A DNA stretch of 21,770 bases from a virus: the UHGV virus genome UHGV-1845973; one strand, given 5' to 3'. The notes under the pieces were generated by a model that did not search any database, was not told the DNA's origin, and worked only from the letters and a program-made list of their open reading frames with translations. The position numbers and the translations under genes are program-made. This document shows, in pieces, positions 5,880 through 21,770 of this stretch (the stretch's first letter is position 1; the number at the start of each line of letters is the position of its first letter).

Positions 5880-6158
5880 ATGGCAAACATTCAAGTAACT
5901 ATCACGCCATCTGACGCAACAGACAAATCTTTCACTGTTGAGTCAGATCACCCTGAAATTGTCCGGGTTGATGGCACTACATGTACCGCTCTTAAGGCCG
6001 GGCAGGCAGTGCTGACAATCAAAACAAATGACGGCAATAAAACCGCACAGTGCACAGTCACTGTTAGGGAGGCACATAAAAGCGTAAGCACCGTCAGTGT
6101 TGAACCAACTACGAAAGAAGTAACCGTAGGCGATAACTTCACGGTAAGCCAATCCTGA
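5880..6158 (+). CDS. Bacterial Ig-like (Big_2-type) domain protein, candidate capsid decoration protein
   Basis: ITPSDATDKSFTVESDHPEIVRVDGTTCTALKAGQAVLTIKTNDGNKTAQCTVTV matches the Big_2 core pattern. RBS AGGAG 6 nt upstream of the ATG. Confidence 0.65.
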   Translation: MANIQVTITPSDATDKSFTVESDHPEIVRVDGTTCTALKAGQAVLTIKTNDGNKTAQCTVTVREAHKSVSTVSVEPTTKEVTVGDNFTVSQS

Positions 6159-10421: not shown

Positions 10422-11129
10422 GTGAGTATTTTCAGCAGCGTTGGTAGAACGTTGACCACCGCATTGTCATTTAACACGAAATCATTCACCAGCAACCTCA
10501 TTAGCGACATTCTTGATAAAGCCATATCAGGCGGCGGGGTAAGCGGGAATTACAGTAGCGATATTGCCTACGGGAAAAATATTGTTGCTGCCGCTATGCG
10601 TATCCGTTACGCCCAGGGGTGGCAGTGGACCGTTGAAGTGGATGGCCTGAACGGCTTCGATATGTTCGTGAAGGATATCACCTACAGCAGTGGAAACATT
10701 GAGACAGAAAGCAAGGTGATCGGCAGCGTAGAATTCAGCAAGCCAACCTATGTTAGCGCTGGACCGGTCACTATGACCGTGAGGGATACCGAAGATGGCA
10801 AGATCATGGACTGGTTCAAAGAGCGTCGTTCTCGTGTAACAAATCCTGATGGAACAATAAACCTTCCTCCGGAATATCTGATGAAAATCCGTGTCTACCG
10901 GGTAACTCAGGACGGCGGAAAAGAACTGGAAGAAGAAATGCGCGTATTTCCTACACAACTTGGGGAAATCACTCGCTCACGTGATCAGGTGTCAGAGTTC
11001 TTGTCATACCCAATCACTTTCCAGAAATACACATCTGCAGGCTCAGGTGTTTCTGCCTTGGTCAACGGTGCCGCTGGCATGGCTACAAGTGCGTTAAAGG
11101 GGGCTATCAGTGGAGTGATCAAATTCTGA
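10422..11129 (+). CDS. Hypothetical tail protein (possibly tube, spike or baseplate-associated)
   Basis: 235 aa. GTG start with RBS GGAGG 6 nt upstream. It is the last + strand structural gene before the replicon. Confidence 0.5.
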   Translation: MSIFSSVGRTLTTALSFNTKSFTSNLISDILDKAISGGGVSGNYSSDIAYGKNIVAAAMRIRYAQGWQWTVEVDGLNGFDMFVKDITYSSGNIETESKVIGSVEFSKPTYVSAGPVTMTVRDTEDGKIMDWFKERRSRVTNPDGTINLPPEYLMKIRVYRVTQDGGKELEEEMRVFPTQLGEITRSRDQVSEFLSYPITFQKYTSAGSGVSALVNGAAGMATSALKGAISGVIKF

Positions 11130-11363: not shown

Positions 11364-12224
11364 TTAATCTGTTGGTTTAAGTTTCGGATTCCGAGAGTGA
11401 ACGATAATGAAGTTTTCACGACCTTGCTTTTCAATGGTGCAATCGAGATAACCTATTGTTTTTAACTGGTCTATAGCTTTTTTTATCGTTCTGTTTTGCT
11501 CACTTACCGATGACATCAAGGCTAATCTTTCACGTATTCTGGCAAATGAAATAGGTATTGGACGTGCCGGGAGGCTTTCTATAAAGGTATATATGGCCTG
11601 GGCTGCTTCTTTTTTAGGTAAAGCGCGAAGTGCGTGTTGCTGTAGAAGCACCCGATAGTCTAGCTGGAAGATTTCCCATAACTTGGAATCAGCCTCCAGT
11701 TCAACGACATCTGTTTCAAAGTCAAAATATCCCGTTTTAAGCAGGCCAGTATTGTAGCTTCCACGAGCACTTTTCCCTCTTTTGAATGAGATGCCTTTGT
11801 TGCGTAACCGACCTAAAGAATCGTGGATCGTGTTTCTTAATTTCCCATCAAGTCGCTTAGATGGAAATCCGCACGCCTTTGCAAATTCTTGAAAAGAAAG
11901 GCGAATTGTATTCGATGATAAGCCATACTTGCTAAATGAGTAGATTACCCCAATCCAGACTTTGAAATCAGTATCCATGTCCAAGCGAGGGCCAGTGATC
12001 TTGATGTTGTCGTAGCCTTCTGCTTGAGCTATTTCCAATTTGGAAAAAACAGATGATGCATCTATCTCGTTGTTTTCACCCTGTTTTTTAGTTGGTTTAG
12101 GGACGAAAACACCAAGCCGCATAAGTGCGACAGGTTGAACAGTATTGTTCGAATTAACTGTTAATTCTTTAGCCTTGCTTTCAATGTCAGCATAAAGAAT
12201 ATCAGAGATAAATGACTTATCCAT
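11364..12224 (-). CDS. repA: RepA replication initiator, P1 / IncY-type iteron plasmid family
   Basis: 286 aa beginning MDKSFISDILYADIESKAKELTVNSN..., which I recognise as P1 RepA-like, and flanked on both sides by P1-type 19-bp iterons. ATG at 12224; the ORF track adds one upstream TTG codon. Confidence 0.9.
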   Translation of the reverse strand: MDKSFISDILYADIESKAKELTVNSNNTVQPVALMRLGVFVPKPTKKQGENNEIDASSVFSKLEIAQAEGYDNIKITGPRLDMDTDFKVWIGVIYSFSKYGLSSNTIRLSFQEFAKACGFPSKRLDGKLRNTIHDSLGRLRNKGISFKRGKSARGSYNTGLLKTGYFDFETDVVELEADSKLWEIFQLDYRVLLQQHALRALPKKEAAQAIYTFIESLPARPIPISFARIRERLALMSSVSEQNRTIKKAIDQLKTIGYLDCTIEKQGRENFIIVHSRNPKLKPTD

Positions 12225-12262
12225 CAATAAGTTACCGTCATGTTGTGAATAAAGTTTACGAC

Positions 12263-12495
12263 AGTGGATATCCGGCTTTTTTTCCCGTCAGCACACATCC
12301 TACATCCCGTCAGCACACATGTAAAACCCTCCAGCACACATATTTTTCCCGTCAGCACACATCGTTCTCCCTCCAGCACACATCTGAATAGTGGTTAAAG
12401 CCTTATGTGGCGCGGCCTGAAGAGCTACGGGATCTATTTGGTACTATATGGATCTAATCAGGATCTATATATTGGATCTATCCTGTGGATAAAAA
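12263..12495. other. oriR-like replication origin: iterons, GATC-heptamer cluster and DnaA box
   Basis: Perfect DnaA box TGTGGATAA at 12484..12492. Four GATC sites inside GGATCTA heptamers at 12431, 12451, 12462 and 12475. A degenerate DnaA-like box AGTGGATAT at 12263. This DnaA box / methylatable GATC repeats / 5 iterons / repA layout matches the P1 R origin as I recall it. Confidence 0.7.
12283..12385. repeat. incC-like origin iterons (5 direct repeats) covering the repA promoter region
   Basis: Five copies of CCC[G/T][T/C]CAGCACACAT at about 12283, 12305, 12326, 12348 and 12368, regularly spaced at ~21-22 bp and all in the same orientation, immediately upstream of repA. Confidence 0.85.
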
Positions 12496-12578
12496 AGAAG
12501 AATTACAAAGCTCCACCCAATTTCACACACTACCTATCCTCCAACGAATAAACAGACATCTGCTTATCGGAGGAATAC

Positions 12579-13400
12579 TTGAACATTCCAAAATTCCCAT
12601 TGCCTTCCCGTCCTGAGACAGAAATTCAGTTCCACGCCCCTACCGTGAAGGATGCGCTGAAATATTCTGACCTGAACCCGGCAGAAGATGAGGCAACTAC
12701 TACAGAGTACCTTAACTCTATGCAGGATGGTGAAATTAACGACAGTGCTTACTGGACAGTCCAGGATCGCAGAACTGCCCTTTGGTGGATATTTGTTAAT
12801 TCGCGCCCCGATGCAGTAATGACCTACTCCTATGAGTGCAGTCACTGCGGTAATACGCATCATGCAGATATTAACCTGAGCGACCTGGCCCAAACAGTAG
12901 AAATACTCACTGTACCTCCTTACGTGAAAACCAACGTACCAGTAAATGGAGTACCAACTGACTGGATACTTAAACCATTAACCGGGAAAGGTGCGGAACT
13001 CCTTGAACGAATGCGAGCGTCACTTCCTGATATGAAAAGTCCCGAATACAGTGCTGGCGTAGCACGGATGCGAATTGCTGAACTCGCTTTATGCACGGCG
13101 CTTGAAGACGATCCGGAGGACTTCACGCAGGCCGCTAACCGACGCTTTGACATCATTGAAAGCATGGCGCTTGAAACCGAATTTACTCCGCTTGTGGCTC
13201 GCATACAGCTTATGCAAAAAGACCTACGTCACGGCCTGAAAATGTCTATTGAGAGAGGCTCAAGCCGACTGATCCTGCCTCCGCAACATTGCAAAAACGC
13301 TAAGGAGGGTGCAGATGTGACAACCACACTGTACGTCCCCTTTCTCAATAGAGAGTTTATCCCATCAATTAGATCTGAATGGATGGCTAACCATTATTAA
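12579..13400 (+). CDS. Hypothetical protein with a Cys/His cluster, immediately upstream of the tape-measure gene
   Basis: 273 aa. TTG start with strong RBS GGAGG 6 nt upstream. Contains YECSHCGNTHHADINL. Possibly a tail assembly or tail structural protein by position. Confidence 0.5.
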   Translation: MNIPKFPLPSRPETEIQFHAPTVKDALKYSDLNPAEDEATTTEYLNSMQDGEINDSAYWTVQDRRTALWWIFVNSRPDAVMTYSYECSHCGNTHHADINLSDLAQTVEILTVPPYVKTNVPVNGVPTDWILKPLTGKGAELLERMRASLPDMKSPEYSAGVARMRIAELALCTALEDDPEDFTQAANRRFDIIESMALETEFTPLVARIQLMQKDLRHGLKMSIERGSSRLILPPQHCKNAKEGADVTTTLYVPFLNREFIPSIRSEWMANHY

Positions 13401-20116: not shown

Positions 20117-20563
20117 ATGGCTGAAAATTTAAAGGTAAGAGATGGTAACCGCCTGTATAAGGCGCAATTACTTTCCTACTATTATTCACGCCGCGCAGAG
20201 TCGGCGATCGGCAAAGGTGCGCGTTTTGTTATCTCTAAGGCGTATTGGTGCAAATCTAGTCTGGTAACTGCTAATGGTGCAGGAGGCTGGAATATAGCGG
20301 ACATTCCGCTCGATTTTAAATTGAGTGGCGCTCAACAGTTTGCTGTGTCCGATCTGATATTGTCCAGCGTGGATGGGATTATCACGATCAATGCAGCCTT
20401 CCCTCAAGAAAGAATGCCGGATAACACGCCTTACGACTTTAACACGCTTGTGCTTGTTGATGCTGAGGAACAGGCTTTTGGTGTGCTTTGCACCCAGCAA
20501 GATACCCTCTATAAAGGTAAACGTTACAGTATTCTCATGACAATCGAGCAAGTTGAGGGTTGA
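20117..20563 (+). CDS. Hypothetical tail-fibre-associated structural protein
   Basis: 148 aa. Its stop lies 3 nt before the tail fibre start. The functional guess is from position only. Confidence 0.45.
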   Translation: MAENLKVRDGNRLYKAQLLSYYYSRRAESAIGKGARFVISKAYWCKSSLVTANGAGGWNIADIPLDFKLSGAQQFAVSDLILSSVDGIITINAAFPQERMPDNTPYDFNTLVLVDAEEQAFGVLCTQQDTLYKGKRYSILMTIEQVEG

Positions 20564-20565
20564 TT

Positions 20566-21770
20566 ATGGGGGCTGATAAAACGAACAACATAATGACACT
20601 ATCCTCTGGTGTCTCACAGTCGTTGCTTGCTGATGTTCAATATTTCGAACTCTATAGTAGTCTGGCTCTTAACAGAAAACTAAAAAATATTGTTTTGCCT
20701 GGCTTTTACTGTGGATTTGAACCGGTTCCCGGCACAGGGTTGAGTGTCCGCATAACTTCTGAAAACTCCGAAGGTAAAGGGGCTGCTTCAGTAGATGTAA
20801 ATAATGTTCAGATATCCGTTCAGCAAATAGAAGATGTGACTGTCTCGGTAAAGGCAGGGGCTACCAACATTATTGTGCTGGAAGCCAATTTTGAACATGG
20901 TGTAAAAACGACACAGGTAGATAGCGCATCTTCTGTCAGTGCTGCAAGAATTTACGCGCGTACGGACAATACTATTGGGCAGAATCAAATTGAATTATGT
21001 CGAGTTATCGTGCCTAGCGGCGCAACGGCTGTGACTAAAGAAATGATTGTGCTTAAATACCGGGTTAACCGTGCTGTTGGTGTCGAATTCTCTAATGAAA
21101 TAAGCAGTACAGAAGAAAGAAAAGCGGCTACACCGAAAGCTGTCAAGGCTGCATATGACCTGGCTAACGGGAAGTATACAGCCCAGGATGCAACCACGAC
21201 ACAAAAAGGGATAGTTCAGCTCAGTAGCGACACCAACAGCACTTCTGAAACATTAGCTGCAACTCCAAAAGCGGTTAAAGCTGCATACGATCTAGCAGCC
21301 GGAAAGGCACCATCCAGTCATACACATCCCTGGAATCAGATCACTGGTGTGCCAACAGCTTCATTGACAGCGAAAGGCATCACTCAGCTCAGTAGTGCCA
21401 CTAACAGCACGTCTGAAGTGCTGGCCGCTACACCGAAAGCTGTCAAGGCTGCATATGACCTGGCTAACGGGAAGTACACAGCCCAGGATGCAACCACGAC
21501 ACAAAAAGGGATAGTTCAGCTCAGTAGCGACACCAACAGCACTTCTGAAACATTAGCTGCAACTCCAAAAGCGGTTAAAGCTGCATACGATCTAGCAGCC
21601 GGAAAGGCACCATCCAGTCATACACATCCCTGGAATCAGATCACTGGTGTGCCAACAGCTTCATTGACAGCGAAAGGCATCACTCAGCTCAGTAGTGCCA
21701 CTAACAGCACGTCTGAAGTGCTGGCCGCTACACCGAAAGCTGTCAAGGCTGCATATGACCTGGCTAACGG
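20566..21770 (+). CDS. Tail fibre protein (P1 S / P2 H-type, PF03406-type repeats), 3-prime partial
   Basis: ATG at 20566 with RBS GAGGG 6 nt upstream; the ORF is open to the window end. Repeated motifs SSxTNSTSExLAATPKAVKAAYDLAxGK are the hallmark of the phage tail fibre repeat. Confidence 0.8.
   Translation, partial: MGADKTNNIMTLSSGVSQSLLADVQYFELYSSLALNRKLKNIVLPGFYCGFEPVPGTGLSVRITSENSEGKGAASVDVNNVQISVQQIEDVTVSVKAGATNIIVLEANFEHGVKTTQVDSASSVSAARIYARTDNTIGQNQIELCRVIVPSGATAVTKEMIVLKYRVNRAVGVEFSNEISSTEERKAATPKAVKAAYDLANGKYTAQDATTTQKGIVQLSSDTNSTSETLAATPKAVKAAYDLAAGKAPSSHTHPWNQITGVPTASLTAKGITQLSSATNSTSEVLAATPKAVKAAYDLANGKYTAQDATTTQKGIVQLSSDTNSTSETLAATPKAVKAAYDLAAGKAPSSHTHPWNQITGVPTASLTAKGITQLSSATNSTSEVLAATPKAVKAAYDLAN
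21127..21770 (+). repeat. Near-identical 300-bp tandem repeat (at least 2.1 copies) inside the tail fibre gene
   Basis: 21127..21426 is repeated at 21427..21726 with a single mismatch (21177 T versus 21477 C). A third copy begins at 21727 and is cut by the window end. Each 300-bp unit encodes 100 aa and itself contains diverged copies of the fibre repeat motif. Confidence 0.9.

Follow-up and report, generated by a model that had tools for sequence, protein, structure and literature searches.

A variable in-frame 300-bp tandem array in the S-type tail fibre gene of D6-like phage-plasmids of Escherichia coli

The tail fibre locus and its tandem array

Sequence comparison revealed that the window, by which we mean the whole stretch of 21,770 nucleotides analysed (UHGV-1845973), is 100% identical along its full length to pB2C_96 (NZ_CP035876.1), an E. 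coli plasmid of 96 kb known as the phage-like plasmid p4 of ETEC strain B2C (PMC13212926), and 97.3% identical over 89% of its length to Escherichia phage D6. These data indicate that the window is a segment of a D6-like phage-plasmid. Five copies of a 21-22-bp repeat (core CCCGTCAGCACACAT) were located at 12279-12385, just upstream of a RepB-family initiator gene on the minus strand (11364-12227), and are probably the iterons of the plasmid replicon; iterons beside repB have been mentioned for D6-like plasmids (PMC6799933). Annotation of the identical plasmid places a PAAR domain protein of 94 aa (1236-1520) and an Ig-like domain protein of 92 aa (5880-6158) in the morphogenesis region.

The right-most part of the window encodes two tail fibre genes on the plus strand. 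The upstream one, an ORF at 20117-20563, encodes a P1 R-type tail fibre protein of 148 aa; it corresponds to D6 orf36, annotated as 'similar to P1 gene R', and in related contigs the identical gene carries a record of PF26881 (Phage_P1_tail_fiber_R). It is followed at 20566-21770 by the 5′ part, 401 codons, of an S-type long tail fibre gene, assigned from its translation, the D6 and pB2C_96 annotations and Pfam, which in pB2C_96 has a full length of 2787 nt (928 aa). Its D6-type N-terminal region of 187 aa (20566-21126), presumed to be baseplate-proximal, and the 5′ 580 nt of the gene as a whole are 97.6% identical to phage D6, and the D6 megablast match covering orf36 and orf35 spans 20400-21146 at the same 97.6% and stops there. 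In D6, orf35 is annotated as 'long tail fiber protein, similar to P1 gene S'. Pfam PF03406 (Phage_fiber_2) matched the window protein with 287.6 bits against a cut-off of 22, in five stretches of the 401 aa, and the full pB2C_96 protein with 667.7 bits in 11 stretches, followed by a C-terminal Collar domain. The initial annotation, made from the sequence alone, had called a tail fibre gene here, and the gene is indeed a homologue of P1 gene S and D6 orf35 with five Phage_fiber_2 stretches and an R-type gene just 5′ of it.

Downstream of the fibre gene, beyond the window, pB2C_96 carries a tail fibre assembly gene (10953-11567 in L001 coordinates), then a reverse tail-protein fragment, and then a serine recombinase (12546-13118). 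In D6 the order is the R-type gene, orf35, U-type assembly genes, an inverted S′/U′ set, cix sites and the cin invertase. When the window and pB2C_96 are combined, the gene order R, S, U (assembly), invertible cassettes and invertase is matched, and the fibre gene occupies the same position as P1 gene S and D6 orf35, with an R-type gene before it and an assembly gene and a serine recombinase after it. A 229-nt segment is present in three copies, in inverted orientation, beside the recombinase (L001 10433-10661 versus 11815-12043 and 12254-12482), and in a near-identical relative (contig L030) the switchable segment lies in the opposite orientation. As with Cin and Min in P1 and D6, the inverted repeats flank alternative 3′ cassettes, and this region of pB2C_96 is a Min/Cin-like system that switches the fibre tip by inversion of multiple cassettes.

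From 21127 to the end of the window at 21770, the fibre gene consists of a tandem array, reported by Tandem Repeats Finder with a period of 300, 2.1 copies, 99% matches, a score of 1281 and no indels. It is the only long-period array that the program found in the window, and a repeat search gave the same pair of units. On the plus strand, unit 1 occupies 21127-21426, unit 2 occupies 21427-21726, and a third, partial copy (21727-21770) comprises the first 44 nt of a further unit and reaches the final base of the window. Units 1 and 2 differ at one base only, unit position 51, where 21177 is T and 21477 is C; the change is synonymous (TAT/TAC, Tyr in both). The T at 21177 is specific to the edge unit, and unit 2 is the same as all four interior units of pB2C_96. 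Translation showed that the frame is open from the ATG at 20566 to the end of the window, through the entire array. The array is thus made up of head-to-tail, near-identical, in-frame units, and a 300-bp repeat of 99.7% identity cannot have arisen by chance. The initial annotation had described two full 300-bp units with a single-nucleotide difference and a third copy begun at the window edge, exactly as is found; many independent assemblies show the same array. It had also described each unit as 100 aa carrying one fibre motif: each unit does correspond to 100 codons and 100 aa, and the motif, AATPKAVKAAYDLA, occurs in it twice, not once. It had missed three further features, namely the higher-order unit of two modules, the shuffled module order in relatives and the coincidence of the window edge with a repeat fork.

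Two other explanations of the locus were considered and dropped. A gene on the opposite strand was discarded, with only short chance ORFs of 69-70 aa found at 20985-21204. A diversity-generating retroelement was also set aside, no reverse transcriptase being annotated in the fetched regions of pB2C_96.

The two-module repeat unit

Each 300-bp unit was found to be composed of two diverged sub-repeats of 132 and 168 nt, which we call module A (44 aa) and module B (56 aa). Both are Phage_fiber_2 modules, and each matches the Pfam model well over threshold. Each module opens with a conserved core of 47 nt encoding AATPKAVKAAYDLA.GK; the repeat search placed the first at 21124-21170 and further plus-strand copies at 21256, 21424, 21556 and 21724, spaced alternately by 132, 168, 132 and 168 nt. 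The 47-nt cores of the two modules are 72% identical, and 14 of 51 bases differ between A-core and B-core, giving 12 synonymous codons and one non-synonymous codon out of 17. Because the two cores encode nearly the same peptide and their differences are mostly synonymous, the module types are old and constrained at the protein level, while successive A-B units are nucleotide-identical.

Module B contains the motif SSHTHPW. Its His-Thr-His codons lie at 21319-21327 on the plus strand, with a second copy at 21619-21627, as read from the sequence and its translation. Among modules taken from the 120 best database homologues, His-x-His was present in all 508 B modules and in none of the 455 A modules. 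The commonest differences between arrays are non-synonymous changes flanking the histidines (SSHTH, SNHTH, SNHIH), both histidines being invariant; they correspond to unit positions 191 and 197 (window 21317 and 21323, and their repeats). In R-pyocin fibres, T4 gp37 and P2 gpV, HxH sites bind iron on the trimer axis (PMC6116203). The likeness to these fibres, one strictly conserved His-x-His per B module, is at the level of the motif, and by this analogy the invariant pair may be a candidate axial metal site of three chains.

A perfect 15-nt inverted repeat (GTGCTGTTGGTGTCG / CGACACCAACAGCAC) was also observed, with one arm at 21071-21085 and the other at 21228-21242 and 21528-21542, joining the sequence just 5′ of the array to every A module. 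The chance expectation in 1.4 kb was estimated at far less than one match. The left arm has one mismatch in several relatives (AACCGGGCTG versus AACCGTGCTG).

Among solved structures, matches by sequence were to the C-terminal collar region (T4 gp37, 2XGF; short tail fibre, 9CUY) and to one motif in tail fibre S of phage Mu (PDB 5YVQ, residues 109-148), and none covers an A-B unit. The Mu protein has one Phage_fiber_2 motif, and its chain aligns to the end of a module plus the core. An AlphaFold2 monomer model of the 401-aa window protein, built from a 30-sequence alignment, was too poor to use (mean pLDDT 35.5, pTM 0.27), its sole hints being 11-residue helices on the TPKAVKAAYDL segments.

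Copy number, module order and assembly of the array

Comparison with relatives found that the number of units varies widely. The array of the identical plasmid pB2C_96 holds 5.1 units against 2.1 in the window, and completed plasmids range from 2.1 to 7.2: 2.1 in p1_000533, pKY1497_2 and p1_000837, 4.1 in p13ZX28-90 and pZX35-94k, 5.1 in pCUVET20-PYO4.3 and 7.2 in p702_18_3, with 4.7 in p95_MLI121 and 3.8 in the AR_0119 and AR_0118 unitigs. Module order varies too. The module strings of related completed plasmids include (AB)2, 4, 5 and 7, and also ABBBB, ABBBABBB and ABBB-ABBBBB-ABBB, and one P1-like phage has ABBABABBABABAB. The 120 best protein homologues span (AB)1 to (AB)6, with lengths of 528 aa for (AB)1, 600-628 aa for (AB)2, 700-711 aa for (AB)3, 800-828 aa for (AB)4, 911-928 aa for (AB)5 and about 1060 aa for (AB)6. 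Within one of these proteins the modules are mostly 100% identical, and the arrays are found behind D6-type and other N-termini and before at least two C-terminal types. A 60-nt pattern spanning the flank and unit 1 matched one IMG/VR contig, whose stored locus ends about 20 nt into the second unit, and had no match in species-representative genomes or metagenome contigs.

Copy number differs between close relatives. Over the 4.5 kb upstream of the array there is no difference among the window, pB2C_96 (5 units) and five assemblies that read through the array with 0, 1, 1, 2 and 4 units, the lowest of these counts coming from drafts that may be collapsed; the completed plasmids pF374-2 and pGF4-B likewise have identical upstream sequence and different module strings. 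Interior units are identical within each array, and array-specific substitutions are common to all interior units of that array, p702_18_3 having the same six changes in all six of them. At the edges, the first unit and the terminal partial unit depart from the interior sequence. This pattern fits the classic signature of repeated unequal exchange, in which the interior is homogenised and the edges drift, and within-array identity could alternatively come from amplification that took place very recently in each lineage. Recent or ongoing unequal recombination, as proposed in the initial annotation, is supported by the spread of 2.1 to 7.2 units in completed plasmids, by the 0 to 5 units found behind identical upstream sequence and by the homogeneity of the interior.

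The array is also difficult to assemble. Ten contigs carry exactly the same 1314-aa neighbouring protein; three of them break off on the array's first base or 50 nt further in, immediately ahead of the one base that is specific to unit 1, two contain runs of 92-100 N within the array, and five read through. The window itself ends in GCTAACGG, and its final base is the last one common to the path that continues into another unit (GG followed by GAAGTAC) and the path that leaves the array in pB2C_96 (GG followed by AAAACAACC). An arbitrary cut would fall on this shared fork base about once in 300 times. At the left end, the window begins with the base adjoining the start codon of the pB2C_96 parR-like gene (record 44757). 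It is reasonably probable that the window is a contig, or the trimmed viral region of one, whose right end is an unresolved repeat fork. Because the identical plasmid has 5.1 copies, the 2.1 copies of the window are a lower bound for its source.

The warning that the array is a likely source of assembly collapse was thus well placed, a window-identical plasmid having 5.1 copies, three of ten contigs stopping and two being gapped. One could go further and regard the tandem copies as an assembly artefact over a gene with a single unit, given that identical 300-bp units are difficult for short reads, that contigs stop or are gapped at the array, that drafts with 0 or 1 unit exist and that the window stops on the fork. 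This is, however, highly improbable. Many plasmids completed independently in different laboratories, unitig-type assemblies included, hold 2 to 7 units; the array is always in frame and the gene intact; and unit 1 has a substitution of its own, which a simple duplication artefact would not make. Furthermore, a search with one unit (coverage at least 80%) found it in 188 of 5,426 complete E. coli genomes, mostly on plasmids and also in some chromosomal prophages, and usually in several places per record (one to eight in the listed records whose unit identity was at least 95%). The counts of 0 and 1, which come from draft assemblies, may be collapsed, and the reliable part of the copy-number range is the 2 to 7 of the completed plasmids. 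For short-read assemblies the array is a systematic trap, and in this family the fibre gene lengths and 'partial' tail fibre proteins held in databases are not to be trusted without long reads.

Origin of the length variation and its meaning for the fibre

Taken together, we consider it likely that this is a real, in-frame array of variable copy number in the shaft-encoding, constant part of a D6-like S-type gene, where recombination drives changes of length. Both RecA-dependent unequal exchange and replication slippage act readily on identical direct repeats of 300 bp. Given 300 bp of identity between units, whole units would be added or removed by homologous exchange in which copies of the plasmid or phage genome are misaligned, or by slippage during replication, and since all module lengths are multiples of three, every product would be in frame. 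Each step would add or remove 100 aa per chain of the fibre protein and would leave untouched the D6-type N-terminal region and the C-terminal collar and receptor-binding part, which in the identical plasmid adjoins the invertase-switched segment. The product would be a trimeric fibre with a longer or shorter shaft and unchanged attachment and receptor-binding ends; on a rough scaling from the long fibre of T4, one unit would be worth about 5-7 nm. Repeated exchange would keep the interior units alike by concerted evolution, while the edge units drift. The array therefore differs from Cin/Min inversion, in that it lies upstream of the invertible segment and would vary by homologous and not by site-specific recombination. 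That the array is itself part of the invertible segment was rejected: in pB2C_96 it ends at L001 10271 and the inverted repeats start 160 nt later, at 10433, so that it lies outside them, in the gene's constant part, 5′ of the tip that the invertase controls, and its repeats are direct and not inverted.

The repeats might matter mainly as recombination joints, the AATPKAVK cores allowing distal parts of the fibre to be swapped and tandem expansion being secondary. D6 and the window are identical in pairwise alignment up to 21134 and then diverge inside the first AATPKAVK core. Two P1-like phages, vB_EcoM-673R5 and vB_EcoM-813R1, carry units at 98-99% identity with otherwise no megablast sharing with the window, and units also occur behind non-D6 N-termini and in some chromosomal prophages. 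Because units are common to phages otherwise unlike the window at the megablast level, the cores also act as joints at which phage lineages exchange the distal part of the fibre. As the main meaning of the repeats, however, this is a tentative reading that we do not favour: it leaves unexplained the identical interior units and the copy-number differences between otherwise identical plasmids, and it is compatible with variation of the array rather than a replacement for it. We also find it rather unlikely that the length variation is a neutral by-product of recombination without a role in fibre function or host range, any number of modules being tolerated. Copy number is independent of the C-terminal type, both C-termini occurring with 2, 4 and 5 units, and much of the copy-number spread may be noise. 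Against neutrality stand the strong constraint at the protein level seen in the 12 to 1 ratio of synonymous to non-synonymous codons and in the unvarying histidines of the B modules, the fact that arrays are in frame everywhere, and the finding in another phage that selection favoured duplications in the tail fibre only when phage and host co-evolved (PMC6365445).

The junction with D6 is sharp, at window 21134-21146, and the sequences are unrelated beyond it. In the arrays of vB_EcoM-673R5 (locus L016, 4955-6542) and vB_EcoM-813R1 (locus L017, 3474-5651), several of the modules are spaced 167 nt apart, not 168, and annotation splits the fibre gene into several 'tail protein (Fragment)' entries; the 167-nt spacings are probably single-base sequencing errors and not real frameshifts.

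Tandem duplication in tail fibre genes is already known. Duplications of the His-box in T4 gp37 broaden the host range (Tetart et al. 1996, as cited in PMC6365445), and in Enterococcus phage EfV12-phi1 tail fibre duplications of 1.8 kb arose repeatedly and were selected during co-evolution (PMC6365445). The present array resembles both in having in-frame tandem copies in variable number in a long tail fibre gene, with HxH in the repeat, but its unit is 300 bp and consists of two Pfam-recognised modules. In contrast to the T4 His-box, which would place the end points at the histidines, the array starts and ends in the AATPKAVKAAYDLA core, and its His-x-His lies in the middle of module B; and whereas the EfV12-phi1 variants came from a selection experiment, the variation described here extends across natural plasmid prophages. 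Other Phage_fiber_2 proteins have mostly diverged copies, whereas here the copies are nucleotide-identical and variable in number. Among the nearest systems, D6 orf35 has a single Phage_fiber_2 hit and no array, and the array had no megablast match in reference P1. The tail fibre or inversion region is named as the most variable in papers on D6-like and P1-like plasmids (PMC6799933, PMC6906374), and in the literature on phage D6, P1-like plasmids, Phage_fiber_2 and tail fiber repeats, of which our coverage was incomplete, we found no description of the array. What differs from precedent is the two-module unit, the end points in the Phage_fiber_2 core and the widespread natural polymorphism in phage-plasmids of E. 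coli.

Repeats have been viewed as a means of adjusting fibre length (PMC6116203), and the variation in copy number probably changes the length of this fibre. A more specific proposal, which we regard as speculative and on balance improbable, is that the array works as a fast-switching 'ruler' that keeps fibres of mixed lengths in the phage-plasmid population, matched to how thick the O-antigen or capsule of the host is. If so, gain and loss of units and reordering of A and B would act alongside the tip-changing invertase switch, and one gene would hold two independent generators of diversity, one for length and one for specificity. The array would likewise offer a natural template from which to engineer fibres of defined length. 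Tail fibres determine which bacteria are open to entry by a phage-plasmid, and in E. coli and Salmonella the P1- and D6-like phage-plasmids commonly carry accessory genes, resistance genes among them. Length steps of 100 aa, taken without any point substitution over the 4.5 kb 5′ of the array, would give these elements variation in adsorption at little cost.
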